In this document: positions 2,389 to 20,133 of the stretch, in pieces
Layout: every line of letters starts with the position of its first letter
Numbering within the stretch: position 1 is the first letter of the stretch
Origin: a virus
Lineage: Duplodnaviria > Heunggongvirae > Uroviricota > Caudoviricetes
DNA length: 20,133 bases
Strand: one strand, 5' to 3'
Virus record (IMG/VR): IMGVR_UViG_2778261637_000004
The notes under the pieces: generated by a model
What the model was told of the DNA's origin: nothing
The model's database searches: none
The model's input: only the letters and a program-made list of their open reading frames with translations
Position numbers and translations under genes: made by a program

Positions 2389-2703
2389 TCACGATAGTTC
2401 CGTTTTGTTGAATTCAATTATATCAAGGTCAGAACTTTCGTAATCCTTACCGAATAAAGCAAAACATATCGCGTCAAGTTCTCTCTTATGTTTGGACGCC
2501 CGATCATAATTACCACCCCAACAGCAAATGAATCCACCAAGTACTGCTGATTCAAAAAGTAATGATGCTGCATCAATATGTCTGAACCAGGAGTCTATAA
2601 GTAAAGCAGAGAGTGATATTAATGTTCCCCACCCGCCAATCCTTCTCCATTTCTCAGCTTCATATTTAAGAGAAGCAATATATTCAATTTTATCTCTCGT
2701 CAT
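2389..2703 (-). CDS. Small predicted membrane protein (104 aa, two hydrophobic segments), AT-rich; last gene of the cargo operon
   Basis: Its ATG overlaps the stop of the upstream 925-aa gene (TGATG), indicating translational coupling. Hydrophobic stretches IGGWGTLISLSALLIDSWF and ASLLFESAVLGGFICCWGG. About 38% GC against a GC-rich neighbourhood. Confidence 0.6.
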   Translation of the reverse strand: MTRDKIEYIASLKYEAEKWRRIGGWGTLISLSALLIDSWFRHIDAASLLFESAVLGGFICCWGGNYDRASKHKRELDAICFALFGKDYESSDLDIIEFNKTELS

Positions 2704-5480
2704 CAGTTCCCCACCGCCTTTCCAAAATCCGGTGCTCTACGTGGCGCAATAGCACCCGGTTCCCACCAACTCGTTATGTCGAACTCCCGTTGCGCGCGGT
2801 CCCTTACTCGATCATTGTAACCAGGGTTTGCCATCTCCTGAAGTTGTTGCAATATCAGGTGATTGGTTATCGCTTTCGCATACCACAGGTTTGCGAATGG
2901 AGTGATCATGCGGGCTGTTTTCAGTGCATCGGCACCGAATGATGTTTCTTCACCCTGTAGAGCCTTCTGTGGGTTAGTAATCAGTAATTTTGTTAACTGC
3001 TCTGCAAAGCTCAACACAGGGCCACCCATAGTGGCACCGATGCTGGAGCCATATTGCGTATGGTCCTGGAAAATAAAATCACCGTAGATACCGAACGAAC
3101 CACCTTTCAGTAGAGCCTGAACCCATGTGGTTGGTTTTGTCATATCCAGCGGGTCATTACCATTTAACAAACTGTTCATCTGGATCGCAAACATACCAGC
3201 AAGAGTTGTTCCCCCGATATATGAGGCCAGAAATTTAATGGCCGGAACGGTGTCCAAATCCCGTGTTCTGTTAACAAGTTGCCGAAATCCAGCAAATGGG
3301 GTTGTTTTGAAGAGCATGAAGCTCTTCATTAACTCGCCAGCATCATCACGGGCATATGTATCAATACCCGTAGCGGTGGTCACAGCATTGGTCATCTCAC
3401 CGTGCGTAATTCCCAGCAATTTCTGGGCTGCTTCAGCGCGTGCATTACGAATCATGCGCGTGATGGTCTGCTCAGCCTCAGCGTCGAATGCTTCTTTCAT
3501 CCGTTTCAGGCGTTCTGGAGGGAGATCTCCAAGGGCTGCCAGTGCCTTTTCACTCCCGGCACGAATCCGGGCAATACGGTCTGCCATAATGTCGGCGATT
3601 ACGTTATCGGGCACAGCGTAAATCGCGTCTGGCGTCATCCCCATATGCCCGGCAGTAGTCATCGGCCTGAGTTCTGCCGCTGCCATGATGGCCCAGTCCT
3701 CATTGCTCCATCCCTTGTTAGCCAGAATGGTTTTATCGGTTCCTTTTATATCGTCCAGCGTCTTAAATTTTCTGGTCAGCTCGCCAATATTTTTGTACAT
3801 CAGGAGACCAAACGACGCTTTGTTTGCGCGGTCCATAGCGATCAGCCCGGACCACTTCAGTGTCTTCTCTGCGAACCAGCCAGTTATGCCGCGAGACAAG
3901 TCAAACCCGCCCATTTTCGAAACCACAGCAGCATGTGAATCCACCAGCAGACCGAGTTCAGCATTCGCCTTTTTGGCATCTCCACTAAACAGGTTTTTGA
4001 TAGTGTTAACGGAAAGCCGCATTCCACCACGGGTAAAGCCCAGCGCCTGCGCATTTGCCCGCATAATTGCCTGGTCGCTGGTTGCTGTCAGTACGCTGGT
4101 GCCAAGCATGGCGCTGGTCATCAGGTTACGCAGACCACCAACTGCTGAAGAGAACACACTCGATGAAGCGACACCATTTAGGCCAGCCATTGAGTTGAAC
4201 ATACGGGCAACTAATTTGGCCTCATCCTCCATTTCTTTTTTGCGTTTCCCGCCTGTTACTGCGCGCTTATAGATGCGATCCAGTACCAGGGAAAAGTTTC
4301 TTTCGGCGTCCGGACCAAAGGCTTTAACGACGCCCAAATCCCTGGATGATGATTGCAGGTGCGACATCATCACCCCCACCAGCGGCTGCTGAGTGTATCG
4401 CTCCATATAGGCGAAGTGTGACTGCGCATCCTTGAACGCCATCACCCTGTGCTGAGAACCACGGCTCTTTATTCCTCCGGCTCCCATAAATGTACCAGGC
4501 TCAATTTTGTTTGCCCCATCAGTGGCCTTCGTTTCAAAGATCGCTTCCAGTGCCTGACGGTACTCGACGTCATTCATAATGCTGCCGTCAGGATTAACGT
4601 AATTGCTGCGATCCTGCGTGTTGTAAGCGTCATCAACCCATTTCTGGCGGGCAAACTCAATCGGTGGCTGGCGACCTGAAAGACGTGCTGTAGCTTGCTC
4701 TGCCACTGGTAACGATGCCAGCCATTCTTCGCGCCCGGCATTGCGAATAAGGTCAGCATCATCCACATATGGCGTATGCCAGTCTTCTCGCAGGCCTATG
4801 TCAAAGCCGTTGTCGTTCATCTCATGACGAACACGGCCTGTTACATCCTTCCAAATCTGTGCAATTTTCTTCGCCAGGGGATTACCGGTATCTTCGCCAT
4901 AAATTTCTTTCAGGATCTGGAGTTGTGCAGACTTTGCCGCCTGCCTGTCGAATACACTCCGAAACCGCTGCTCTCCAAGCGCCCTGCTCTGCTCGAAGAA
5001 TTTGCGGACGTCATCACCTGCTTTTAGAAGTTCAGCACTGAGCTGACGGGACCAGTCCTGATATGCCCCAATTGCAAGCTCTTCAGCAGAAGTAACGGAG
5101 ATATCAGCTTTGTCTCTCGATCGTCGGCCAGCAAAAATAAACTGCTGCAAATTAACAGGTGTCTGCTGATCAGGCGGGATGTTAGCATCGAGAGTGTCAG
5201 TAATTTTACTGATGGCGATCGCATTCTGGGCAACACGCTGTCTTTTCTTGTACACATCATGAACCACACGCTGGCGTACCAGTTCTGCTGCATCCATGTA
5301 TGTTTGAGCATCAGGAATACCACTTTTGCCTTCTTTTGCATTCTTTCTGTGCACATGCTGCACAGCTTCTTTGATACGATCTTCAATATTTTTCAGCTCA
5401 TCAGCCTTTGGCTGGCGACCAAGTGTCTGCGCAATAGCTTCAACACATGCCTGTTTCATTATGGGTTCCTCAAGAAGCAC
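2703..5480 (-). CDS. Large hypothetical protein (~918-925 aa), Gly/Ala/Ser/Thr-rich with hydrophobic glycine-rich segments; cargo operon gene 3
   Basis: Long uninterrupted ORF. The track start is a GTG at 5480; the more likely start is the ATG at 5459 (MKQACVEAIAQ) preceded by GAGGAA. No Walker A or other recognisable catalytic motif. Segments such as GTSVLTATSDQAIMRANAQALGFTRGGM and GGTTLAGMFAIQMNSLLNG resemble phage structural or ejection-protein composition. Confidence 0.85.
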   Translation of the reverse strand: MLLEEPIMKQACVEAIAQTLGRQPKADELKNIEDRIKEAVQHVHRKNAKEGKSGIPDAQTYMDAAELVRQRVVHDVYKKRQRVAQNAIAISKITDTLDANIPPDQQTPVNLQQFIFAGRRSRDKADISVTSAEELAIGAYQDWSRQLSAELLKAGDDVRKFFEQSRALGEQRFRSVFDRQAAKSAQLQILKEIYGEDTGNPLAKKIAQIWKDVTGRVRHEMNDNGFDIGLREDWHTPYVDDADLIRNAGREEWLASLPVAEQATARLSGRQPPIEFARQKWVDDAYNTQDRSNYVNPDGSIMNDVEYRQALEAIFETKATDGANKIEPGTFMGAGGIKSRGSQHRVMAFKDAQSHFAYMERYTQQPLVGVMMSHLQSSSRDLGVVKAFGPDAERNFSLVLDRIYKRAVTGGKRKKEMEDEAKLVARMFNSMAGLNGVASSSVFSSAVGGLRNLMTSAMLGTSVLTATSDQAIMRANAQALGFTRGGMRLSVNTIKNLFSGDAKKANAELGLLVDSHAAVVSKMGGFDLSRGITGWFAEKTLKWSGLIAMDRANKASFGLLMYKNIGELTRKFKTLDDIKGTDKTILANKGWSNEDWAIMAAAELRPMTTAGHMGMTPDAIYAVPDNVIADIMADRIARIRAGSEKALAALGDLPPERLKRMKEAFDAEAEQTITRMIRNARAEAAQKLLGITHGEMTNAVTTATGIDTYARDDAGELMKSFMLFKTTPFAGFRQLVNRTRDLDTVPAIKFLASYIGGTTLAGMFAIQMNSLLNGNDPLDMTKPTTWVQALLKGGSFGIYGDFIFQDHTQYGSSIGATMGGPVLSFAEQLTKLLITNPQKALQGEETSFGADALKTARMITPFANLWYAKAITNHLILQQLQEMANPGYNDRVRDRAQREFDITSWWEPGAIAPRRAPDFGKAVGN

Positions 5481-5487
5481 GCTGCCG

Positions 5488-7512
5488 CTACAGAATAAAC
5501 CTTCGATTCGTTCTGGACTGTCTTAATCTGTTCATCCAACTCAGCCAGGAGATCAGAAAGTTTTGTCGGGTTTCCGGGTGAGCTATAGTCAGCTCAGGAT
5601 TGGCAACAGCCATGTCCCTGGCAGCCATAAGGTCATAGCTGTTGGATGAGAGAACCTGCCCTGTATCTGGATCAACGCTGACGTCCCCTCTGTGTTCACC
5701 AGCCGATGAGAAAGCACTTTCAGCACGAGGGACAGGCGATTCACTAATTGGCTCTGATGATGTTTCATATCTGACACCATTTTCTTCAAAAACCTTTTGT
5801 ATTTCATGGTATTGCTCTTGGTAAGTATCAGATGTATCTGATCGCAATGGACCATCAAGCCCTCGCGCCATCCCCCCAACATTTACAGGCTGACCATCAT
5901 TAAGTTGCCTGTATGCTTCATCCATGGCGTCAACATGGCTGTTGATGCTCTCATTGCTGGTGTGAAGCACTGGTGACGATTCAATATCGTAATGAAGCCC
6001 CTCATTCAAAATGTGGGCTGCATCAATATCGCTTGGTTTTATTCTTTCCCTCGCCCGGATACCAAAAACTTTTTCTACTGCGGCTTCCAGTTTCATATTG
6101 CGAAGACGCATACTTACGAGTAACCGTAACTGCTCAGGTGTAACGGTTCCAACCTGAATACCACTGTATCTGAATATATAGGCTTTAAAACCTGAAATAA
6201 TTTTTTCCCATGACGAAACGCTTGTCTTTAGAGATGGATTTACTGCATGTGCGGCAACTTCTTCAGCGTATAACCACTCAGGATATGTTTCAGGGTACTC
6301 ACCCCTTTTCTTATATTCATAATATTGTGACATCCCATATGCAAATTCAGGATAGTCAGAATGCTTGTTTGCAGATTTAAGTACAGCATTAGCTAGCTTT
6401 CTGGCCTTCCAGTCAGGGTAATGGCGCTGCTCAAGATGAAGCGCCTCATGATGAAGGGTTTCTAACAGTTCTTCATGGTCTTTTAATCCATTAATATTTA
6501 TTCTTATTATTGGTTCTTTTCCAGAAGCTACTGTCACATGACCTTTATTCAGAAGTATTTCTCCATCACTATTTTTTATTGCTGGTTCATTAATAAGTTC
6601 TATTACTCCTGAATCAGATAAATCACGAACCATTGACTCAATGTTACCATCAGGAGATTGCTGATAATGTTCACCAAAAGTTGATTTTATTTCTTCTGCA
6701 GAAATGTTCGACTCTGTACCATCATGGTTATTATGGGTAGTCAGGTGATGAACGCCACCAAAGACCCCGCCTAAAACGGCATCGACTAACATCGCCTGAC
6801 CGTCAAATACCCGGTACTGTTTTGCCATCTCCGTGTAGCCTTTTTCCTCCAGTGTTGCACCGACAGAGTAACGGTTCAGTCCACCGAATCCGGTGTTGAT
6901 TGCCACACCTGAGGCAATGCGCGTTGCCAGTGTGGTGCCGACGGCAGCGGGTAAGGCCATACCCACAGCATTGAAAAGGCTCTGCTGCGTTGCCAGGTTA
7001 CGCGCCGTAGCCTCATCTACTCCCTTCCCTTTAAAATCCTGATAGGACTGCTCATACGTAGAACCGAAGGCTGTAGCAGCGCCGATGAGTGGGCCGCCAA
7101 ACATAGTTGTTCCGATTGCAGGAACAAATTTACCAAGCTCATTTAATACCTCAGCCGCCATTCCCTGGCTGCCTGCATCAGGCTTCACATAGCTGCGGGC
7201 ATCCTGTAACTGTTTTCCGATCGTGTCGTATGTATCATTCAGTGTTTTGTCAGCATCAGGGAACATCTCCCGAAAAATATTAACAGTCGGTGCCACGTCT
7301 GCGGTAAATGCCGGATCGCTAATCAGGCGCTTGCTGAATCCGACGGCAGACTGCGCGAGACCGAGAGCCCCCTCCGCTACGCCGCTCAAAAGTGCAGTAC
7401 CTGAACCCTGGAAGGGAGTCGGATCGTAGTCTTCTGGCCTTGCTGGGTTGGCAACTGTTTTGTCGTCAATCCATGCCTGACCTTCTGGAGCCAAAGAAAA
7501 AACATCAGACAT
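5488..7512 (-). CDS. Large hypothetical protein (674 aa) with an embedded AT-rich segment carrying an HExxH(x4)H zincin-like motif; cargo operon gene 2
   Basis: Its ATG overlaps the stop of the 843-aa gene (TAATG). HEALHLEQRH occupies residues 355-364 (nt ~6421-6450). Roughly nt 6170-6760 are 27-35% GC, against about 55-60% in the flanking parts of the same gene. Confidence 0.85.
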   Translation of the reverse strand: MSDVFSLAPEGQAWIDDKTVANPARPEDYDPTPFQGSGTALLSGVAEGALGLAQSAVGFSKRLISDPAFTADVAPTVNIFREMFPDADKTLNDTYDTIGKQLQDARSYVKPDAGSQGMAAEVLNELGKFVPAIGTTMFGGPLIGAATAFGSTYEQSYQDFKGKGVDEATARNLATQQSLFNAVGMALPAAVGTTLATRIASGVAINTGFGGLNRYSVGATLEEKGYTEMAKQYRVFDGQAMLVDAVLGGVFGGVHHLTTHNNHDGTESNISAEEIKSTFGEHYQQSPDGNIESMVRDLSDSGVIELINEPAIKNSDGEILLNKGHVTVASGKEPIIRININGLKDHEELLETLHHEALHLEQRHYPDWKARKLANAVLKSANKHSDYPEFAYGMSQYYEYKKRGEYPETYPEWLYAEEVAAHAVNPSLKTSVSSWEKIISGFKAYIFRYSGIQVGTVTPEQLRLLVSMRLRNMKLEAAVEKVFGIRARERIKPSDIDAAHILNEGLHYDIESSPVLHTSNESINSHVDAMDEAYRQLNDGQPVNVGGMARGLDGPLRSDTSDTYQEQYHEIQKVFEENGVRYETSSEPISESPVPRAESAFSSAGEHRGDVSVDPDTGQVLSSNSYDLMAARDMAVANPELTIAHPETRQNFLISWLSWMNRLRQSRTNRRFIL

Positions 7513-10043
7513 TATTCAACCCTCACGACAATAGCTTTATTGGTTCTGGGATCTGTTGCCCAGCGTCCGCTACCATTTACAAGCCGATACCGGTTATTGC
7601 CGATATTAACTGGCGTGAAATTTGACACTGCATTTACGTTAAGTCCGGCATCTTTCAGTGCTTGTTTCGCAGATGTGGTATAGCGATCTTTGAAAGTAGA
7701 TTTATCCATGCCGAAAGGCATTACAACGTCGCCGCCATTAAAACCATTGTATATACCGCCAGTAGCATACTTCACGGCATCAGCTACAATGTCTGTATCA
7801 GGCATACTGGTTCTTACCGTAGATGCATCACCAGATTGATAAGCTATTCCTGCATAAGCGGCTTTGAAAAGGCTATAACTGATCTGGCGTAACTGCGGGT
7901 TACGGGCAAATGCATTACCTACCTGTTCGTCGAAAGCGTCTTTCATCTTATCTTCGCTCGGCAACTGTACCGGAGTTATGCCCGCATTCTTCATGGCCTT
8001 CGTCGGATTCAGTAGTTGGTCGCCGGAAAGAATAACCTTTGCAACGTCGTACTTGTTCATCGTCGGCTTATACCCGATGAACTGACTATATGGGATCGTC
8101 GGCTTGGTGTTGTCGTACTGGTTATCCGGCGTGCCCAGCAGCAGCGCAGAATAGGCTGTTGCCGCACTGTTCGGAGCAATTACAGATGCCACCTGCCGTA
8201 TTGCTGGCGCAGGCAGCTTCTCCCCCATGCTCTGCAACAGTTTAATTGTCTGGTCAACGTTCTGAGTGCCGCGCACCTGCTGTGCCAGCGCAGCCGCCTC
8301 TTCACTGTTGAGGATTGGGGCATTAATTCCCAACGCGCGTAAGCTTTCCTGCGACGAGAAACGGTTAGCCACCTCGGCAGTGATGTCGTCAGGGTTGTTG
8401 CTGGTGATCGGCTTATAGGCTCCGATTTCCACCGCTGCACTAAACGGATTATTCTGCCTCTGGGTTATTACCTTCGTGGCTGCCGCCGATACCCGGTCGA
8501 ATAACTCCGCACGAGACGCATACCCCTCCCCTGTTTCACCAGTATCCGGGCGCAATTGCTCAACATATGCGGTAATGCTGCTTGTCGGCATGTTGCGGAA
8601 AGAGCCTATATACTGTCCGGCGATCTGCAAATTTCTGAACTCGATATATCGCAGGTTTCCTTCTCTGACACCATAAGCTGCAATGAACTCATCCTCACCA
8701 GGTGGGTTAGGAAATTCAACGCCACGCATAAACGCAGCCGTTGCATCGCGAACCCTGCTATCGAGCATCGTTCTATATTCAGCCTGCTGCTGTCTGGCTA
8801 ATGCATCCGTCTGTCGCAACACGCTGGCCTGATCTGATTCACTTAAAGCATCGAACCAGGCTACACCGGTATAACGTTTATTTTTTGTCGGTAGCTGAGA
8901 AAGCCCCAGTGCGGCACTAACGCCAGCGGCCAATTGCTGATCACTGTACGGCTGACTGCCTTGCTCATGATGAATAATTGCTTTGCACAGAGATTTCAGT
9001 GTGTCAGGATTTGATGCGTCAAGCGGCTGGTCAGGAGTTACACCGAGCTGAGCACATACTGCCCGTATATAAGCATCAGTTTTATTATCATCACTGGCCG
9101 GTGCCCAGCGATTAATTATTTCGCTGATGGTGTCATAACCCTGACGCTGATACGACAGCAAATTGCGACCAAGCGCGCGAATACCGTGTTCAGGGGTTTC
9201 GAATTTGGCAAAGCGACCATCATCACCAGTCTGCCCAACCCACGGATTAGTTTTGCTGTATTCAAGATTGCCGGGGTTATTGTTGCGTATACCGCGGGTA
9301 CGATCGGAAGAGCCACTATCTGCTACAGCACGGCGAGATCCAGCAGCAGTATCGCTTAACTCTCCGTTTTGCTGTCTTACCTGAAGATAGTTTGCTCCAA
9401 TAGCATTTTGAGCAGTTGCTTTTGCTGTTGCTTCTTTAAACTCGATTTTCTTGGCCTGGATTTGCTCGTCGCTCCAGCCATGCGCAATACCGTAATCCTC
9501 AATTTGCTGGAAAGTTTGCGTATTAGCCAATATGTATGCTGCGTTGTTGCCATATAATGCTGAGGCATTTTTACCATTATTCAGCAGTGTCGCCTGAAAC
9601 TGGCCTTCTTCGTAGGCATTTATTTGCCCTATCTCGTACCTCCCGGCCTGCGTAGCGAACTGAATACGCTGCTGCTGCGCCTGCTGCATGAAAGCATTAC
9701 GAGCCTGTTCATCCGGCAGCGACATAGCCAGTTGTTCGACCTGAGCATCAAACTGCTGTGTATACTCATGGCCTTTTCCAATAGCATTTTTCCCTTTCAG
9801 ATTAAGCAATCCTGTTTCAGGATTATTCAGCAGATCACTGCCTGTCTGACTGAGTTTAAGGGATGCCTCCTGAACCAAGGCAATATTGGCGCGCTGTTTT
9901 GCCTGACCAAGAACATCAATTGCCTCTGTCCCTGCCCGAACAAAAGCATCACCAATACCTGGCTGAGAAAACGTCTGCAAGCCTGCTGACTGAACTCCAC
10001 GGCTCTCAACCTGACGTCCGGATACTGTTGGTACGACTGGCAT
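7512..10043 (-). CDS. Large hypothetical protein (843 aa), Gln/Ala-rich N-terminal region and a conserved-looking GIRNNNPGNLEYS...RWAP block; cargo operon gene 1
   Basis: Long ORF with ATG at 10043 and an AGGGGG Shine-Dalgarno upstream. The block at residues 251-315 (nt ~9099-9293) looks like a conserved domain core. GKNAIGKG is not a canonical Walker A. Confidence 0.85.
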   Translation of the reverse strand: MPVVPTVSGRQVESRGVQSAGLQTFSQPGIGDAFVRAGTEAIDVLGQAKQRANIALVQEASLKLSQTGSDLLNNPETGLLNLKGKNAIGKGHEYTQQFDAQVEQLAMSLPDEQARNAFMQQAQQQRIQFATQAGRYEIGQINAYEEGQFQATLLNNGKNASALYGNNAAYILANTQTFQQIEDYGIAHGWSDEQIQAKKIEFKEATAKATAQNAIGANYLQVRQQNGELSDTAAGSRRAVADSGSSDRTRGIRNNNPGNLEYSKTNPWVGQTGDDGRFAKFETPEHGIRALGRNLLSYQRQGYDTISEIINRWAPASDDNKTDAYIRAVCAQLGVTPDQPLDASNPDTLKSLCKAIIHHEQGSQPYSDQQLAAGVSAALGLSQLPTKNKRYTGVAWFDALSESDQASVLRQTDALARQQQAEYRTMLDSRVRDATAAFMRGVEFPNPPGEDEFIAAYGVREGNLRYIEFRNLQIAGQYIGSFRNMPTSSITAYVEQLRPDTGETGEGYASRAELFDRVSAAATKVITQRQNNPFSAAVEIGAYKPITSNNPDDITAEVANRFSSQESLRALGINAPILNSEEAAALAQQVRGTQNVDQTIKLLQSMGEKLPAPAIRQVASVIAPNSAATAYSALLLGTPDNQYDNTKPTIPYSQFIGYKPTMNKYDVAKVILSGDQLLNPTKAMKNAGITPVQLPSEDKMKDAFDEQVGNAFARNPQLRQISYSLFKAAYAGIAYQSGDASTVRTSMPDTDIVADAVKYATGGIYNGFNGGDVVMPFGMDKSTFKDRYTTSAKQALKDAGLNVNAVSNFTPVNIGNNRYRLVNGSGRWATDPRTNKAIVVRVE

Positions 10044-10447: not shown

Positions 10448-10472
10448 CAAAAAAAGCCGGATTGCTCCGGCT
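10448..10472 (-). terminator. Strong Rho-independent terminator between the replication operon and the cargo operon
   Basis: On the minus strand: AGCCGGA-GCAA-TCCGGCT hairpin followed by seven T residues. Confidence 0.7.
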
Positions 10473-10478
10473 CTGTGC

Positions 10479-10628
10479 TTACTTCTGGTAGTTACGCCAT
10501 ACTGATTTCCCGATCCCATCTATCCCCATTTCTTTTTCAGTGCGTTTAAGCGACCGTTTCAGGTCTTCTAAATTATCCGGTTGCTTCGGTGGCCTCTGTG
10601 CCTTCCTGGAACATTCCAGTCGTCGCAT
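10479..10628 (-). CDS. Small basic ORF (49 aa) below the ORF-track threshold
   Basis: Hand translation gives MRRLECSRKAQRPPKQPDNLEDLKRSLKRTEKEMGIDGIGKSVWRNYQK. The stop lies 7 nt before the terminator hairpin. The ribosome-binding site is weak. Confidence 0.3.
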   Translation of the reverse strand: MRRLECSRKAQRPPKQPDNLEDLKRSLKRTEKEMGIDGIGKSVWRNYQK

Positions 10629-10712
10629 TGATATGTAATACCGTTCCTTGTCAGTTCCCCAACTGCATTACTTCACCCCATCGCGCCGCCGCTCTTCGAT
10701 ACAGGGTTTTAG

Positions 10713-11129
10713 TTAGCCTCCGGCTCTTCCGTAGCGCTGTTCTGGTGGATTCACATAGCCCCTTTCTTGCAGGTATTCGCGAATATCAGACATCAGGAGA
10801 CGGTTAACCGTGCTCCTGTCTTTTCTCTGGTAAAGGCGTCTGGTGATCATGAAGTAGTTAGCAATGACCTCCGGTATATCCCTGACGCTGATACATGCTG
10901 TATGCTGGTCAATAGCTTCAATCATCTCTTCACGAGTTACAAAAGTCTGGCGTAAACGAGTGATCACACCATGTACATCTGAATGATCATTTATACGCTT
11001 ATTTTGGCGCTTCGCGCTCTCGACTGTGACACTGACAACAATGTCAACTCTTTGTTTCTCCGCCATTTCATCCACAATGTGATCACCTGCACGGCGACCA
11101 TGTGCGTGATCATTTCTTACTATTTCCAT
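10713..11129 (-). CDS. Hypothetical protein (138 aa), last large gene of the replication operon
   Basis: ORF with GGAGGAG upstream of the ATG at 11129; overlaps the end of the FinO/ProQ gene by 20 nt. No recognisable motif. Confidence 0.55.
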
Positions 11130-11607
11130 TCATCTCCTCCAGTAGTTTTCCTGCGTGCATCTGTTGTAGTGGTGTTACCTCGCCGCACGGCTGGCCTTTC
11201 AGGTCGTAACGCGCGCCACCAGCTACCAGGGCGCGGTAATAGCGCGGAGTCTGCACATAACGCGCCAGCGTTGCGCGTAGTGTTCCCTGTCCGAGTGAAA
11301 TACCTCTCGCGGCAATATCCTGTATCAGGTCGTCAAATATCCCCACCTTAAGCGGCTTAGGTGATTCCGGGCTGAATAATTCAGGCCATAGCTCAATAAG
11401 ACGGTTAACGCGTCTGCGGTTTTTACGCTGCCGTTTGGTCATACGCCGCCGCGGTGTTTCTCCTGTGAGCTTCTGCTGTGTGTTCTGGTTATCTGGCATC
11501 ACTTTATGCGCCGATGTGGTTTTATTCTGCTGCTGAGCCGCCTGTGCTGTTTTCTGCGGCGTGCCGTAAATGCCCTTCGGTTTTCTGTTTATGGTCAGCT
11601 TTGTCAT
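11110..11607 (-). CDS. FinO/ProQ-family RNA-binding protein
   Basis: Basic N-terminal region ([14 protein letters not shown]) followed by [30 protein letters not shown]...[39 protein letters not shown], matching the ProQ/FinO domain signature (PLKIGI..DL...RY...R.DL.G.PCGE). Confidence 0.75.
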
Positions 11608-11643: not shown

Positions 11644-12069
11644 TTAAAACGGTATCCCGTCCCCGTACGGATCATCGTGCTGGCCTGTCTGTTGCTGTGC
11701 CCTGTTCAGTGCATCAGTAGCCTGCCCCTGCTGGCCTTTTTTGCCGCCCGGTCGCGCCGTTCGCGCACTGATTACGCTGTCTGCGATAACCTGCCATCCC
11801 TGCCTCGTTTCGCCGTTCTGGCCCGTCCACCGGCTCACCTGCATGTTACCGGCCACGCTCACCAGTTCGCCTTTGTGGTGTTTTGCCAGTGCGTCAGCCT
11901 GTCTGCCAAACGCCAGGACGGATAACCACATCGTCGCCGTTCCGTCATCTGCCTGATTGCATGGAAGAGGGACCGCCATACTCGCCATCGCCATTTGTGT
12001 GCCCTTGCTGGTGGTCTTTAACTGCGGGTCAGCCACCAGCCGCCCGTAAGCTGATATTTGCGCCGTCAT
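11644..12069 (-). CDS. ssb: Single-stranded DNA-binding protein (SSB family, mobile-element type)
   Basis: 141 aa; OB-fold-like N-terminus, a Gly/Gln-rich linker and a C-terminal acidic tip ending DDPYGDGIPF (canonical SSB ends DDDIPF). Confidence 0.8.
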   Translation of the reverse strand: MTAQISAYGRLVADPQLKTTSKGTQMAMASMAVPLPCNQADDGTATMWLSVLAFGRQADALAKHHKGELVSVAGNMQVSRWTGQNGETRQGWQVIADSVISARTARPGGKKGQQGQATDALNRAQQQTGQHDDPYGDGIPF

Positions 12070-12132
12070 GCTGTTTGTTCTCCGGTTTTAACGTGATAGT
12101 TACGCTTGTTTACACTCTTACAGTGAAATTTT

Positions 12133-12255
12133 GCGGGTTACAATCGCACATTTGCGGGTTATAACTGCTGTTTTGCGGGTTACGTGCGGGTTATTGATTT
12201 CCTTTTTAATCATGCAGTTAATTAACTTATGCACAGGATAACCCGCATAACCCGC
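12133..12255. repeat. Iteron cluster B: four GCGGGTTAY copies (21 bp spacing), a ~43 bp AT-rich spacer, then two tandem ATAACCCGC 9-mers; putative origin
   Basis: Copies at 12133-12141, 12154-12162, 12175-12183 and 12186-12194; inverted tandem copies at 12238-12246 and 12247-12255. Sits in the 210 bp gap between the primase stop and the ssb start. The arrangement is the reverse complement of cluster A. Confidence 0.6.
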
Positions 12256-12279
12256 AACTTTTTACCTCACACAGGGAAG

Positions 12280-14406
12280 TTAATCTTCTGCTTCAGGCTG
12301 GAACATCAGCACGTAAAAAATATGCTGCTTCCCGCCAATCCTGCCGAGCGCCTTTTTCTTGTAACGGCGGTCGCCTCCCGCTTCCAGCATTCCGGCAGCA
12401 CTCAACGCGCGGGCAAAGTGAGACGGATTAAATCCCTGTGCGATCTCCCCCTCAAACACATGCGGAAACGTGTAAAAACGGAACTCATCATCTTCATTTC
12501 TGATACTCCCCTTTCTGTATCCGGCAAGGTCTTTAATCGGTAAATCACGCTCATCGCTGTTTGGATAAGGAAGGTATCGACTGAACCCGAACGACGACAA
12601 AAACGCCTCAGCCTGTTCAACCATCTGTTTAAATTCCCTGTTGCCCGTGCCGAATTCCTTCACCCAGGCATTAAAGTTATGCTGAACTGCATCACGGCAC
12701 GCCTGAACATCCCAGCCTGTAACATGACCGGAAAGCACAAGCGCGGCCTCCAGTACGGCGAATCTTTCCCCCACGCGGTGAACCTGCTCGCCGTAGCTCT
12801 CCGGTATCAGGTTGCGCCACCGCTCGCGACATGCCCTTACCGCGTCCTTTGCCTCCTGCTGGTGGCCTGCCAGCCATTTAACCCACTCACGACCTGCCGC
12901 CCCGTGATTTTCTGTCCAGGCATCTTTTAACGCGTCTGCGTGCGCCTTTCCGGTGCTGTATTCGTGAAACTGCGAGGCCTTTTCCATCGGCACGTTAAGC
13001 AGACGGACAAGCTGCCCCGCTTTAATTTTTATCCCTTCCGTTTTGAGGAATGTTTCAACGTCCATTTCTCCGGTGCTGATTGCCACCGTGCGCCAGTGTT
13101 TTATCTCCCTGTTGCCGCCGTCCTTCGCCCCCTGTAATTTCCCGGAACCGTTAAACAGCGTATAGGCTGACGTGGACACCTCCCGCGCGTTTCCGGCCTG
13201 GCCTATTTCATCCAGGGGTAACAGCCCGTCATTATGTGCTTCGGCCTCGTTGGCGATACCTAACGCCGTTCCGTACCAGGTCAGCCGTTGCGCGTCCGGC
13301 TCTCCCCATAAACTTGATGCAATGTTCTGTGTGGTGGTTTTACCTGCTGATGATTGCTCAAAAAGATGAACCCCGAAGCCGTCAGCACCCACCAGCCCGA
13401 TTAATGGTGCGGATAGCGATACCGCCACACCCAGCATCATGGACGGATTACCACCAGCCAGCCGCGCCACGGTATCGCGCCAGCCCTCCGCTGTTCCCGC
13501 CACGGAATAGCCATTAACTGCGGCAGTTTTTCCGGTAAACAGGATGGGTTTCTCTGATTCACCAATGACCGAACCATCCGGCATGATGTACGCACCAAAA
13601 TGCCAGCCCGTTGTAGTGCTTAGCTGCCATTCCTCATGACTTCCGCTTAACTGCATCCAGTCAGCCAGGATGGCTCTGTATTTGCCGTTGGTCGTCACGT
13701 TAAGACCGTGGTCTTTCAGCAACCGCCAGCCGTCACGGTCACCAATGCCTCCGCACGGGACCGCCATTGTAATGACCTCATGGTTTGCTGGTTTTTTCCA
13801 GCGCATCACGCGGTAATGCTCTTTGCCGATTGTTCCTGTTCCCAGTAGTTCAAGCGGAGAACATAACCACGTCTCAGGCCGGATAATTTCGCCTGACTGC
13901 TTGTCCACTTTGGGCGTTACCCAGAAAACACCATCGACGCGACTTTCAACACGAGGCTTTAATTCGTCATCATAATTTCCGGTGAAATTTGTCTTTGCCG
14001 GAAGGTTGATCACCAGACTGTTACCGCGTTCCGCATCATCCTTCAGTCCAGCCATGCGCGGTGTCCAGTCCTCCGGCTGCTGGTCAACAAAGCTGCGGTA
14101 GCAACGCGCCTCCTTCACACCCGCCACTGCAAGCAGTGTCGCTATCTGTGTAAGGTGCTGCTCTGATATTTCACCAGCACGATAAACGCGCACGTAATAG
14201 CGCCCTTTGTCGATGATTTGCGTGTCTGCCAGACTCGCCAGTTGTTCCGGTCCAAGAATAACTGGATGTGTATCATCTGCCGCAATATGCTTTCCGGCCC
14301 ATTCGCTCCACTCTTTCGCATGTGCCCAGGCATCACTACCCGCAAAGATAATCACCTCCGTCATTTTGTCTTTCGGCTGGTGCTTTAAATTCGGTGCGCG
14401 TTTCAT
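12280..14406 (-). CDS. Replication initiator: primase/helicase-type protein with a P-loop NTPase domain
   Basis: 708 aa. Walker A-like LFEQSSAGKTTTQ and an acidic LLPLDEIG stretch (Walker B-like). ATGA start/stop overlap with the upstream 100-aa gene. Sits beside the iterons and ssb, as in P4-alpha-like and PICI replicons. Confidence 0.8.
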   Translation of the reverse strand: MKRAPNLKHQPKDKMTEVIIFAGSDAWAHAKEWSEWAGKHIAADDTHPVILGPEQLASLADTQIIDKGRYYVRVYRAGEISEQHLTQIATLLAVAGVKEARCYRSFVDQQPEDWTPRMAGLKDDAERGNSLVINLPAKTNFTGNYDDELKPRVESRVDGVFWVTPKVDKQSGEIIRPETWLCSPLELLGTGTIGKEHYRVMRWKKPANHEVITMAVPCGGIGDRDGWRLLKDHGLNVTTNGKYRAILADWMQLSGSHEEWQLSTTTGWHFGAYIMPDGSVIGESEKPILFTGKTAAVNGYSVAGTAEGWRDTVARLAGGNPSMMLGVAVSLSAPLIGLVGADGFGVHLFEQSSAGKTTTQNIASSLWGEPDAQRLTWYGTALGIANEAEAHNDGLLPLDEIGQAGNAREVSTSAYTLFNGSGKLQGAKDGGNREIKHWRTVAISTGEMDVETFLKTEGIKIKAGQLVRLLNVPMEKASQFHEYSTGKAHADALKDAWTENHGAAGREWVKWLAGHQQEAKDAVRACRERWRNLIPESYGEQVHRVGERFAVLEAALVLSGHVTGWDVQACRDAVQHNFNAWVKEFGTGNREFKQMVEQAEAFLSSFGFSRYLPYPNSDERDLPIKDLAGYRKGSIRNEDDEFRFYTFPHVFEGEIAQGFNPSHFARALSAAGMLEAGGDRRYKKKALGRIGGKQHIFYVLMFQPEAED

Positions 14407-14707: not shown

Positions 14708-14965
14708 TTATTTCCCGGTGTGGGGTTCTTCTTTATATTTATGGGCTAACAAATCTGGTAATTGCCTGTATTTATCCTCGGCAATATATTCAGAATAATC
14801 GACAGCACTGTTCAGTATATCTAACGCCGTTTCATGCTCCAGATTCGAAACTATAAGGAACGTTGCTACTTTTAGCATATTCGCGATATGCAAAAGAGCA
14901 TCAATTTCATTTTTTGGCGCTTCGCTGAATTTTTGCTCCAGAAGAATAAATCGTTCATCACGCAT
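14708..14965 (-). CDS. Hypothetical protein (85 aa)
   Basis: ATG at 14965 preceded by AGGAGGA; acidic, helical-looking sequence. Confidence 0.6.
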   Translation of the reverse strand: MRDERFILLEQKFSEAPKNEIDALLHIANMLKVATFLIVSNLEHETALDILNSAVDYSEYIAEDKYRQLPDLLAHKYKEEPHTGK

Positions 14966-15161
14966 AGTGTTCCTCCTGACGGATGCGGGCAGTAAATACC
15001 ATCACGCAGCCAGCCGGGGATTGCTGACGGGCTTCCTGTTCGCTGGTGGCCACGATGTGAATCACGCGCGGTTGTGCCGTACTCAGGGCGATAAAACGCC
15101 AGATGTATTTATTCAGGTTGTGCGAGTCCCGCCCTTGCGGGTGTGTGGTATGATTTCTCAT
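14958..15161 (-). CDS. Hypothetical small protein (67 aa), first gene of the leftward replication operon
   Basis: This is the C-terminal 67 codons of the 415-aa track ORF, starting at an ATG (15161) with GAGGT upstream; it overlaps the next gene by 8 nt. The rest of the 415-aa ORF conflicts with a well-supported plus-strand gene. Confidence 0.45.
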   Translation of the reverse strand: MRNHTTHPQGRDSHNLNKYIWRFIALSTAQPRVIHIVATSEQEARQQSPAGCVMVFTARIRQEEHYA

Positions 15162-15257
15162 AGCTACCTCGATACTTCTGCTATCGTTGGTGGTTAGAAG
15201 CCCGGTTAGTGTTAGCGCACTGCCGGGTTTCGTCGTTTCTGCACCTTGCATCAACAA

Positions 15258-15336
15258 GGTGTAAGTAACTTTATTTATAGGTGGCTTACATGTCAATGCT
15301 TTTATGTAAGACTTTTTATGTGTATATTGTCTTACA
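15258..15336. promoter_or_regulatory. Divergent promoter/operator region with nested inverted repeats
   Basis: GTGTAAG (15258-15264) pairs with CTTACAC (15330-15336), and CTTACAT (15284-15290) with ATGTAAG (15303-15309). TATATT -10-like element at 15322-15327. Lies between the leftward replication operon and the rightward RHH-like gene. Confidence 0.45.
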
Positions 15337-15357
15337 CTTTCGTTAAGAGGATTACAG

Positions 15358-15663
15358 ATGGCTACAGGTTCAAAAAACGCAAAATCACAATCGCTGACAG
15401 CTCGGATCCCGCATGATGTTATTGAAGGCATGGAATCCGTAAAACTGGACGGCGAAAGCAACGCCGGATTCATAGTAACCGCCATGCGTGGTGAGATCGC
15501 CCGCCGCCAGGCAGAAGGAAGCGGAGAAAATCCCCTCGTGTCTTCACTGGATGCCTTAGTTAAGGTCGAACAAATCGGCATCAAGGCAGCGGAGGAAATC
15601 GGGCAACTCGTAGCCGTCGCTCGTGAAGAACTCCAGCGCCGGGAGGCCAAAGAGCAGGAATAG
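15358..15663 (+). CDS. Small DNA-binding protein, ribbon-helix-helix-like (MobC/CopG-like); candidate island regulator
   Basis: ATG preceded by AAGAGGA. SLTARIPHDVIEGMESVKLDGESNAGFIVTAMRGEIARR is consistent with an RHH N-terminus followed by a helical C-terminal region. Confidence 0.6.
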   Translation: MATGSKNAKSQSLTARIPHDVIEGMESVKLDGESNAGFIVTAMRGEIARRQAEGSGENPLVSSLDALVKVEQIGIKAAEEIGQLVAVAREELQRREAKEQE

Positions 15664-17496: not shown

Positions 17497-17703
17497 TCAG
17501 GCTGATGTGTTTCGGCGTTCTTCCAGCCAGCGATTAATCTCTACCGCATCAAACGCGGTAACATTACTGGTAAGTTTTATAGGCCGTGGTAACGTGCCAT
17601 TTTTCACCCAGCGATCGATTGTTGGCATAGAGACTCCCAGCAGTTCTGGCAAACGGTATCGGCGAATGTAGCCAGTAGTAGGAATGGTAGATTGTTCTGT
17701 CAT
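17497..17703 (-). CDS. alpA: AlpA-family transcriptional regulator / excisionase-like protein
   Basis: 68 aa with a winged-HTH core (YIRRYRLPELLGVSMPTIDRWVKNGTLPRPIKL); the usual integrase partner in P4-type and CP4-57-type islands. Confidence 0.8.
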   Translation of the reverse strand: MTEQSTIPTTGYIRRYRLPELLGVSMPTIDRWVKNGTLPRPIKLTSNVTAFDAVEINRWLEERRNTSA

Positions 17704-18771: not shown

Positions 18772-18864
18772 ATGCCACCTTTAAGCATTTCACCTTAAAA
18801 AATGAATGAGTCCAGCGGTAAGGTTTTCCGCTCTTCACCCCGTCGGGCTAGGCTCAATCTGTCC

Positions 18865-20133
18865 CTATGATAGCTTATGCATTTTCCTGATTGGCGTCAC
18901 GTTGTATTCTTCATTGCGTTCTAGCGCTACCAGCAGATCAGCCCACTGTGCCAGCGCAGCTTTACGCTCATCAAAATACTGATGGCGGTTATAAATCCCC
19001 TCCACACCCTTAATGCGATGATTGAGGCATCGTTCCGCTACGACAGGATCAACACCCAATGCTGCTAAATGAGTACGTGCGGTACGCCGGAAGTCGTGAA
19101 TCGTGAAATTAGGCACATCCGGCATTTCGGCGCGAACCTTAGCCAGTGCTACGGGTAAAGTGCTTTCCTGAATATGTGGGATCATTCTGTTTTGCATCTT
19201 CCTGGCTGGAAGCACCCATGCGCTATTACATGAAAAGGTGTGTAGCTCTCTCAACCATTCAACGGCAGGAGAAGGTAGAGGTATATCAATAGGGTCTCCG
19301 TTTTTGCTGCGTTCTTCCGGCAAATGCCATACCGCACCATCTAAATCAAACTCTTCCCATCGTGCGGCGCATAACTCCATCTTACGAACGCATAGTGCCA
19401 GCAATAGCTTAAATGTCAGTTCGTTCTGGCGGCTGAATCCTTTGGCTTTACGCATTGCCTGAAAAAATTGGATTAATTCGTCACGGTTCAGCCAGCGATC
19501 ACGAGATAATTCTTTCCCACCAGCATCTGATACTTCGAAAGCTGAGCAGGGATTTATCTCCAGAGCGTGGCGTTTTATCCCATAGTCAAAGATACGGCGT
19601 GTCCAGCGTAATACATCTGTTGCTATCGTTGGTGCTCCTCGGTCAACGATACCTTTCAACATGTCGTCAATGTGGCGTGGCTTAACGTCCTCTACCTTCA
19701 TATGCCCAATGCAGGGGTTAATATCCTTATCAATTCTCCGGCGAAGGATATCGGGATGTTTCCATCTCGGAAGTATCTGTCGCTCGAAGTATTCGGCGGC
19801 CAGATCTGAAACGCGCATGGCGTTTTTCTCAGCCTCCATTTTTGCCAGTGCTTCAGCTTTTCGTTCCTGTTTTTCTGCTGCTACGTCATAGCCAAGAGCA
19901 ACTCTGGCTGACAGCTCTTTTGCTGTTTCTCTGGCTTTTGATAGTGACAGTTCGGAGTAAGAGCCGATAACCATAGCCCGCTGTTTTCCTGCGAGCTTAT
20001 ATCGGAATCGCCAGAACGGGACTGTGTAGTTTTTGGGGTAGCAAATATAAAGGCCGTTGCCGTCTGCCTTGCCATCAAATCTGTCTCCCGCCTTTATCCA
20101 TGCGCGGATCTGCATATCTGTGAGTTTTGGCAT
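18865..20133 (-). CDS. Tyrosine recombinase, P4-type integrase with an N-terminal arm-binding (DUF4102-like) domain
   Basis: 422 aa. The N-terminus (LTDMQIRAWIK...DGNGLYICY...WRFRY) matches the P4-integrase arm domain. The C-terminus has HDFRRTARTHLAALG and a GIYNRHQY tyrosine region. The start codon is the final three bases of the window. Confidence 0.9.
   Translation of the reverse strand: MPKLTDMQIRAWIKAGDRFDGKADGNGLYICYPKNYTVPFWRFRYKLAGKQRAMVIGSYSELSLSKARETAKELSARVALGYDVAAEKQERKAEALAKMEAEKNAMRVSDLAAEYFERQILPRWKHPDILRRRIDKDINPCIGHMKVEDVKPRHIDDMLKGIVDRGAPTIATDVLRWTRRIFDYGIKRHALEINPCSAFEVSDAGGKELSRDRWLNRDELIQFFQAMRKAKGFSRQNELTFKLLLALCVRKMELCAARWEEFDLDGAVWHLPEERSKNGDPIDIPLPSPAVEWLRELHTFSCNSAWVLPARKMQNRMIPHIQESTLPVALAKVRAEMPDVPNFTIHDFRRTARTHLAALGVDPVVAERCLNHRIKGVEGIYNRHQYFDERKAALAQWADLLVALERNEEYNVTPIRKMHKLS

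Follow-up and report, generated by a model that had tools for sequence, protein, structure and literature searches.

The presence of a FinO/ProQ-domain gene in the early operon of a phage satellite raises the question of which RNA its product handles and which step of the satellite life cycle it serves. The gene in question lies in a stretch of 20,133 nucleotides (nt) of viral DNA (Duplodnaviria; Heunggongvirae; Uroviricota; Caudoviricetes), IMG/VR virus record IMGVR_UViG_2778261637_000004, and this whole stretch is called the window below. At 11110..11607 on the minus strand, the window carries an ATG-started open reading frame (ORF) for a protein of 165 amino acids (aa), here referred to as the proQ-like gene. 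The familiar F plasmid layout of finO, the tra operon and FinP offers a model for such a gene. The protein is read here as an accessory RNA-binding protein of a phage-inducible chromosomal island (PICI), the ligand of which would be the island's own SymR-like small RNA (sRNA) in a FinOP-like feedback on the early operon, a reading to which a probability of roughly one in three (about 0.35) is given. The domain annotation of the gene is already public. What is added here is its place relative to the origin, its accessory status, its anticorrelation with capsid genes, an atypical N-cap motif, and a candidate antisense sRNA.

The proQ-like gene is preceded by the Shine-Dalgarno sequence AGGGGAAGG, and its product is recorded as WP_021513191.1 under the name 'ProQ/FINO family protein' by the Prokaryotic Genome Annotation Pipeline (PGAP) of NCBI, with DNA 100% identical to the gene of E. 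coli E1. Residues 64-162 match Pfam PF04352 (ProQ/FinO) at profile positions 5-102 of 109, with E=1.1e-23 and 83.7 bits against a gathering score of 27, and the profile search assigned no different fold. Pairwise comparison with four diverged homologues gives a ratio of nonsynonymous to synonymous substitution rates (dN/dS) of 0.21-0.29. The ORF is thus a maintained coding gene and no chance ORF, and it is under purifying selection.

The protein consists of two parts. Codons 1-57 (11437..11607, minus strand) encode a strongly basic and probably disordered N-terminal tail, for which the predicted local distance difference test (pLDDT) score of AlphaFold2 is below 50 over residues 1-50. Residues 1-63 have an isoelectric point (pI) of 11.75, with 15 Lys or Arg against two Asp or Glu. 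In the family alignments, the stretch KRQRKNRRR ahead of the first helix hardly varies, and Q60, R61, K62, R66 and R69 are invariant or nearly so. Codons 58-164 (11116..11436, minus strand) encode the predicted FinO domain, modelled with AlphaFold2 on an alignment of 50 family members, which also supplied the profile for sequence matching against the PDB. The pLDDT is about 88-93 over residues 58-160, and the modelled elements are helices at 58-73, 90-101, 107-118 and 121-129, a beta hairpin at 132-143, and a last helix at 146-164. A Foldseek search of the PDB with this model returned 26 significant matches (E 5.7e-7 to 7e-5), all of them FinO-domain structures (FinO, RocC, NMB1681 and Legionella ProQ), and the next match had E=3.7. 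By sequence, the nearest solved structures are the N-terminal domain of E. coli ProQ (5nb9, E=2.7e-14) and FinO (1dvo, 2.9e-11), followed by Legionella ProQ, NMB1681 and RocC, and with the profile of 50 members the E-values become 3.3e-19 for 5nb9 and 3.2e-16 for FinO. The FinO/ProQ domain with a basic N-terminal tail, which the first-pass annotation had read from the letters of the window, is therefore borne out by the Pfam profile, the predicted fold, the pI and the pocket residues described next, and the motifs quoted there are all present in the translation.

In the crystal structure of RocC with RocR, the residues G52, Y87, R97 and R75 of RocC bind the terminal nucleotide and the hairpin (PMC9674577), and the pocket of the FinO domain recognises the terminal ribose 3'-OH (PMC9674577). 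These four residues align with G89, Y123, R133 and R111 of the window protein. The first three are invariant or nearly so in alignments of 13 to 50 family members, and R111 is nearly invariant and aligns also with ProQ R58 and with the L-R motif of FinO. The 3'-end-binding pocket is thus intact in the predicted FinO domain.

In E. coli E1 the gene resides in an island of ~18 kb adjoining tRNA-Gly, and the IMG/VR relatives are contigs of 10-16 kb. The backbone runs from the integrase gene (int, 18865-20133) through AlpA (17497-17703; 27.3 bits against a cutoff of 21), antirepressor-like genes with AntA and Bro-N domains, and a divergent YlcI-like gene to the early operon, which comprises an Icd-like gene, a DUF4222 gene, a DUF927 primase/helicase gene, a gap of 210 nt, ssb, the proQ-like gene, a chimeric ORF of 138 aa, a perC pseudogene, and a terminator. 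The Icd-like gene, first of the operon, encodes 67 aa at 14958..15161 on the minus strand (NCBIfam phage_ICD_like, 69 bits against a cutoff of 25). An ORF of 415 aa that is listed mechanically at this place was rejected as an over-extension on reading the sequence. The primase/helicase gene occupies 12280..14406 on the minus strand (Pfam DUF927, E=1.7e-46; DNA primase phrog_1139, E=2.7e-174), and ssb occupies 11644..12069 on the same strand (Pfam SSB, E=2.4e-16; phrog_44). The gap between these two contains at 12123..12265 two TGCGGGTTA iterons, an AT-rich spacer, and four inverted copies (repeat families D1, D3 and I1-I9). The origins of Staphylococcus aureus pathogenicity islands (SaPIs) and other PICIs are the model for this assignment, and by analogy the segment is probably the origin of replication. 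The integrase, AlpA, the primase and the iteron origin are hallmarks of Gram-negative PICIs, and the host element is accordingly classed by its gene content as a PICI-type phage satellite without a full set of virion genes. The placement of the gene in the replication operon of a mobile element, as proposed earlier, agrees with this, since the gene lies two genes after the iteron origin and the element bears the PICI hallmarks int, alpA, primase and ori. The proposed position between ssb and an overlapping gene of 138 aa was also confirmed, with a gap of 36 nt between the ssb stop and the proQ-like start on one side and an overlap of 20 nt on the other.

A candidate ligand is located at the other end of the operon. 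At 15162..15245 on the plus strand, a SymR-like cis-antisense sRNA is predicted opposite the leader and the Shine-Dalgarno sequence of the Icd-like gene. Its score with the Rfam symR model is 33.6 bits, below the gathering score of 61, and it aligns with K-12 symR including the -10 box, which lies 7 nt ahead of the start of the RNA in both and reads TAGAAT in K-12 and TATGAT in the window. Two hairpins are kept over 51 distinct variants, with 98.0% of the cells paired and 12 of 24 pairs compensatory, and none of 500 shuffles was as good. The structure is confined to the antisense strand, where 154 G.U cells are counted and 98.0% of cells are paired; for the sense strand the figures are five and 85.8%. 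The GC-rich second hairpin runs into a U-rich tail in the manner of a terminator, with a sequence that differs among alleles, and the fold z-score of the RNA is -4.7. Together, these features strongly support an antisense sRNA at this place, which is the canonical kind of ligand of FinO-domain proteins. It is also the only sRNA predicted in the island that both is supported by covariation and bears a terminator.

The SymR-like sRNA is preferred as the ligand because its geometry mirrors that of FinP, traJ and finO, and because it is the only covariation-supported and terminator-bearing sRNA in the island. As in the F system, a long operon carries the FinO-domain gene distally, and its first gene is under a two-hairpin antisense RNA, a candidate one in the present case. 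The arrangement of finO, the tra operon and FinP in F has been reviewed (PMC9977716), and both FinO/FinP/traJ and FopA/Inc/repZ are cases in which an element-encoded FinO-domain protein acts on the antisense RNA of its own element (PMC9977716, PMC7491321). The window protein would be made only once the early operon of the island is switched on, together with the replication genes. Like FinO, FopA and RocC, it would grip an RNA hairpin with its single-stranded 3' tail; the grip would shield the RNA from nucleases, and the basic tail would speed pairing with a complementary RNA. The weakest step is the choice of ligand, which would be the SymR-like sRNA of the island, by which the ribosome-binding site of the operon's first gene is covered. 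The early operon, and through it replication, would thereby come under a negative feedback similar to that of FinO/FinP/traJ. In the sister islands with the sRNA and without the protein, either the chromosomal ProQ or no chaperone would serve.

FinO of F-like plasmids is one of the known proteins closest to the window protein. Both are encoded by mobile elements, have a basic N-terminal extension followed by the FinO domain, and are without a Tudor-like C-terminal domain. FinO is also the best Foldseek match (1dvo, E=5.7e-7), with a root-mean-square deviation (rmsd) of 2.0 Å over 102 columns, and the KRQRKNRRR stretch resembles the basic N-terminal helix of FinO by position and charge. In contrast, identity over the domain is ~31%, the window gene belongs to a chromosomal satellite and not to a conjugative plasmid, its relatives are never found on plasmids, and its candidate partner sRNA occurs also without the protein. 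E. coli ProQ shares the motif PLK[IV]GIF, the RY motif and R-x-DL-x-G-x-PCGE, and the window copy has in addition H-A-x-K-x-LEE in the last helix. Unlike ProQ, the window protein has no linker and no Tudor-like C-terminal domain and carries a basic tail of 57 residues before the domain; moreover, ProQ is a core global regulator, whereas the window gene is an accessory island gene. FopA (YafB) of the IncI plasmid pCol1B9 is likewise a FinO-domain protein encoded by its element and has an N-terminal region of its own, and it promotes the pairing of the antisense Inc RNA that controls replication of the element via repZ (PMC7491321). The window island differs in that it would replicate by its candidate iteron origin and primase/helicase, and no Inc-like RNA was found at its replicase gene. 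RocC of Legionella, which acts with RocR, has a similar fold (template modelling score 0.8 normalised to RocC, rmsd about 2.5 Å) and the same pocket residues. However, identity is 26-28%, and RocC is chromosomal with a long C-terminal region.

FinO-domain genes have also been listed in other satellites. A ProQ/FinO-like accessory gene lies beside int-alpA-primase, BRO and Icd in the PICI AVS0889 of Enterobacter cloacae (PMC13612085), and a ProQ/FinO-like gene is listed in the episomal cf-PISP satellite-plasmids of Vibrio (PMC13230959). Both papers only list the gene and analyse neither what it does nor where it occurs nor its RNA partners, and its relation to the window subfamily is a putative one. 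In the literature, no functional study of a satellite-borne member was found. The occurrence of FinO-domain proteins in plasmids and phages, and how they tend to pass into chromosomes, is the subject of a review (PMC9977716).

Sequence comparison places the window protein in a separate island-borne subfamily, which is neither ProQ, FinO nor FopA. Its scores are 56.7 bits against a cutoff of 127 for the NCBIfam ProQ equivalog NF003434 and 55.4 bits against a cutoff of 136 for FinO NF010317. To FopA of pCol1B9 it has 31% identity over 74 residues (pairwise E=2e-6), with no match to the N-terminal region, and is therefore not an orthologue. DNA searches found relatives in 1078 of 5426 complete E. 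coli genomes (~20%) at 1543 places, with up to nine per genome, including O104:H4, ST131 and O157 strains. All 1543 places are chromosomal, and among the matches listed the PGAP name is 'ProQ/FINO family protein'. E. coli, Shigella, Salmonella and Citrobacter supply the 311 relatives found in the protein database, which are typically of 165-180 aa. In the assembly index, the same 165-aa protein (a 98% identical cluster) is recorded in more than 4000 blocks, and the 24 blocks read correspond to 28 contigs. Among 72,556 plasmids no close relative was found apart from one chromosome-sized record at 65%, the best match being FinO at ~31% identity. There were likewise no close relatives among 50,697 phage records, of which the best was gp26 of Sodalis phage phiSG1 with 45% identity over half the protein. 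A pattern scan of the GTDB species representatives gave only three loci, so either the breadth across species is narrow or the scan is insensitive.

A second and shorter clade of 114-159 aa, 57-67% identical, was met among the related loci (numbered with L), at L005 11939-12283, L008 9942-10418 and L012 2799-3278. It sits in CP4-like islands (O157:H7 86-24 and ST131), where it is convergent with a gene for UCP030791 and has AlpA and YagK/inovirus-Gp2-like genes nearby, and the O157 copy adjoins a dnd/dpt phosphorothioation system. No non-coding sequence common to the PICI clade and the CP4-like clade was found, as the gene alone matches. One IMG/VR island has two tandem FinO-domain genes, 39% and 42% identical to the window protein (L102 6545-7659).

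The FinO-domain gene is optional in this island family. About 180 related loci were gathered from E. coli genomes, assemblies and IMG/VR and annotated by tblastn with reference proteins. A sample selected by the Icd-like gene, and thus blind to the FinO-domain gene, comprises 63 usable islands (IMG/VR loci L104-L183 compared with the window). The gene is present in 20 of these, 19 of which are without capsid genes, and absent from 43, of which 42 are capsid-forming (cfPICI-like) and have ssb followed directly by perC or by capsid genes. Within this one PICI backbone, the gene and capsid genes thus nearly exclude each other, with a Fisher p=6e-14, uncorrected for the relatedness of the loci. 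In a larger set of distinct gene-carrying islands, 68 of 81 are without capsid genes and 13 have them. The capsid-less islands with the gene have TerS-like genes, and in their place the window lineage has three large internal virion proteins like those of phiV10 and epsilon15.

Several results weigh against the feedback reading. An sRNA that co-occurs specifically with the protein was sought and rejected, since the same hairpin alleles are found in nearly all protein-less islands of the Icd-selected sample; the SymR-like sRNA clearly works without this protein. Conversely, some protein-carrying islands have a leader of the C4/IsrK type instead. The int-alpA RNA (Rfam RF02996, 42.5 bits, above the gathering score), located directly after the integrase stop at 18793-18858 on the minus strand, was also considered as partner. 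It was found at first in 5 of 11 loci with the protein and in none of 11 without it, and a wider nhmmer survey found that it tracks one integrase type and is absent from 29 protein-carrying islands. The presence of the gene follows the type of late module, namely the one without capsid genes, far better than it follows any RNA, and this capsid-less association fits a role directed at the helper phage at least as well as it fits an sRNA feedback. In the protein itself, the N-cap Ser of RocC (S70) and the flanking Lys residues (K71 and K73) are not kept. The motif is S-K-S-K-L-R in RocC, S-K-T-Q-L-R in ProQ and S-H-K-K-L-R in FinO, as against G-Q-G-T-L-R in the window copy (aligned residues G106, Q107, G108 and T109) and G-x-G-x-L-R in the family. 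In RocC, the S70A mutation has a milder effect, and K71D/K73D causes a ~12-fold loss (PMC9674577). Furthermore, the basic C-terminal tail of most relatives is absent from the window copy. Confidence in the sRNA feedback is modest because the sRNA does not need the protein.

No island RNA, whether the SymR-like sRNA, C4 or the int-alpA RNA, is specifically linked to the protein. Since no candidate RNA co-occurs specifically, RNA-based control by the protein, through which it may act on replication or on a helper phage, is inferred from family membership. Two further observations on RNAs of the family may be added. The window copy of the int-alpA RNA has an outer stem followed by U6, similar to a terminator. 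A conserved non-coding RNA in the 360-490-nt gap of the ssb-less sister islands was rejected, as this gap, which matches the 210-nt gap of the window, is an iteron origin with other iteron sets and a sequence specific to the replicase type.

Matches to Rfam C4 near the icd-like gene (72-76 bits) occur in islands both with and without the protein, at L009 14247-14435 (minus strand), L106 7352-7439 and L116 3048-3135. L009 also has an IsrK match of 52.9 bits, and its C4 loop is complementary to the Shine-Dalgarno region of icd. The C4/IsrK leaders and the SymR-like sRNA indicate that the island family uses at least two kinds of RNA at the icd control point. The first-pass annotation had placed the element in a lineage in which satellite immunity is often RNA-mediated. 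This stands in part. The element is not P4-like, as none of the P4-like traits (a psu-delta-sid module, a P4 alpha-type primase, CI RNA) was found among the ORFs of the window and no Rfam match of the C4/CI type in the window at E<=1. On the other hand, C4/IsrK occur in sister islands at the same leader, and the window has a covariation-supported SymR-like antisense RNA.

The main alternative, if a doubtful one, is that the protein acts in trans after induction, on RNAs of the helper phage or the host, such as terminator hairpins and antisense RNAs, and alters their stability or pairing, by which a capsid-less satellite would exploit or restrain its helper. The helper is probably a podovirus like phiV10 or epsilon15. 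The tight link between the gene and the capsid-less state (19 of 20 against 42 of 43, and 68 of 81 in the larger set) speaks for such a role, as do the usual translational coupling to perC, which belongs to a family of transcription activators, and the lack of an island RNA that co-occurs specifically with the protein. In addition, the chromosomal ProQ binds many RNAs derived from phages and islands (PMC9977716). Nevertheless, the link to the late module may reflect the shared descent of linked modules, and 13 capsid-forming islands carry the gene. The coupling to perC is not strict either, since perC is a pseudogene in the window and the proQ-like gene is intact, so that their functions can be separated. 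Among the RNAs of a helper, no target was identified.

Two other explanations are unlikely. According to one of them, the protein is an accessory of replication that binds primer RNA, R-loops or other RNA 3' ends at the origin, or single-stranded DNA, and modulates initiation by the primase/helicase. Either the iteron origin or ssb always directly precedes the gene, this arrangement is kept beside three unrelated types of replicase, and the recognised ribose 3'-OH is also present on a primer (PMC9674577). However, 43 of the 63 islands have the same replicases and origins without the gene, and replication thus does not need the protein. The adjacency to ssb is seen in only 34 of 82 loci, and FinO-domain proteins are not known to act on primers or DNA. 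The other, equally improbable, explanation is that of a decoy or competitor, which would rival ProQ in binding terminator hairpins, or would tie up an RNA with a regulatory or defence role, for example an RNA antitoxin, and thereby rewire host control or counter a defence at induction. It agrees with the N-terminal domain of E. coli ProQ being the closest solved relative, with the missing C-terminal domain (the domain ends at residue 164 of 165), and with the place of the gene at the border of the region of accessory and defence cargo, where L006, for example, has an AAA-ATPase and a DUF4435 gene downstream. The idea is purely speculative, PADLOC gave no match, and a basic N-terminal stretch as nearly invariant as this one speaks more for a chaperone in active use than for a passive decoy. 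A hitch-hiking or decaying gene without present function in this island, as might be read from the scrambled downstream junction (the 138-aa chimera and the frameshifted perC), the loss of the basic C-terminal tail, and relatives that are frameshifted or shortened, is highly improbable given the dN/dS of 0.21-0.29, the record of the 165-aa protein in more than 4000 assembly-index blocks, and the intact pocket residues.

The downstream junction of the window is a derived one. The 138-aa ORF (10713..11129, minus strand) is a chimeric fragment that matches phrog_63 (Ant) at residues 57-127 and phrog_1711 at residues 5-68, and PGAP calls it an incomplete pseudogene. It is followed by the perC-family pseudogene (10479..10704, minus strand; phrog_994), called 'PerC family, frameshifted' by PGAP. 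In most relatives, e.g., L006, L007 and L010, an intact perC overlaps the stop of the proQ-like gene by 4 nt, and the perC copy of L006 matches Pfam PerC with E=1.3e-31. A frameshift behind the divergent C-terminus was ruled out, as the frame is continuous and the tail was swapped at a recombination junction near codon 160. The same junction brought in the 138-aa chimera and left perC a pseudogene, and this exact derived arrangement is on record in thousands of assemblies.

Synteny was counted over the 82 gene-carrying loci with enough flank. A replicase gene lies upstream on the same strand in 79 of them and is of one of three unrelated types (DUF927, 'DNA primase family' and AAA_25). The Icd-like gene is present in 78 loci, perC is adjacent in 67, usually with the 4-nt overlap, and ssb is directly upstream in 34. 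Frameshifted or shortened relatives occur in the avian pathogenic E. coli (APEC) strain IMT5155 and in O157 86-24. The O104:H4 island with the gene carries as cargo the gene pair of AAA-ATPase and DUF4435 (L006 6088-8044), presumably the same domain pair as in the PARIS anti-phage system. PADLOC returned no defence-system match for the FinO-domain protein or its neighbours.

The early operon has putative transcription signals at both ends. A sigma-70-like promoter, TTGACA-17-TAAAGT, lies upstream of the leader at 15268..15296 on the minus strand; it is proposed from its consensus match alone and was the sole one found on the operon strand. Transcription of the operon probably stops at 10453..10474 on the same strand, at a strong intrinsic terminator with a stem of nine base pairs followed by U7 (fold -19.5 kcal/mol, z-score -2.6). 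The YlcI-like gene and the early operon are separated by a divergent promoter region (15260-15370), of which several alleles are seen when the window is compared with L001, L006, L007 and L010. Each allele has its own inverted or direct repeats around the -35 and -10 boxes, e.g., GTGTATTTCACC...GGTGAAATACAC, and these repeats look like allele-specific operators of a protein repressor.

The 'late' module of the window (2703-10043, minus strand) consists of three very large genes of 843, 674 and 925 aa. The trio matches PHROGs of head or internal virion (ejection) proteins of the phiV10/epsilon15 type, and one of them has a transglycosylase-like segment. Variants of the trio among the islands measure 843/686/918, 837/600/824 and 873/565/849 aa. 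It seems unusual for a satellite to carry ejection proteins in place of genes for a capsid or a terminase.

Among bacterial RNA chaperones, those with a FinO domain make up one of three major classes, and each characterised member from a mobile element, namely FinO and FopA, steers a key step of the life cycle via one antisense RNA. About one in five complete E. coli genomes has the present subfamily, the place of which is the core operon of phage satellites. If the protein were a minor modulator, the finding would be an ordinary one, a correctly annotated domain in a mosaic island. A more far-reaching and rather doubtful view is that the two halves of a FinOP-like system, a SymR-family sRNA and a dedicated chaperone, set the timing or level of satellite replication, or else that the chaperone targets helper-phage RNAs in capsid-less satellites. 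If true, this would be a FinOP-like circuit new for phage satellites, or an RNA-level interference with the helper that is specific to capsid-less satellites. Once the RNA ligands are found, the structure-function picture of the family would gain a natural variant of the hairpin-binding N-cap motif, and it would become clear whether a dedicated RNA chaperone serves satellites in timing their replication or in manipulating their helper phages.

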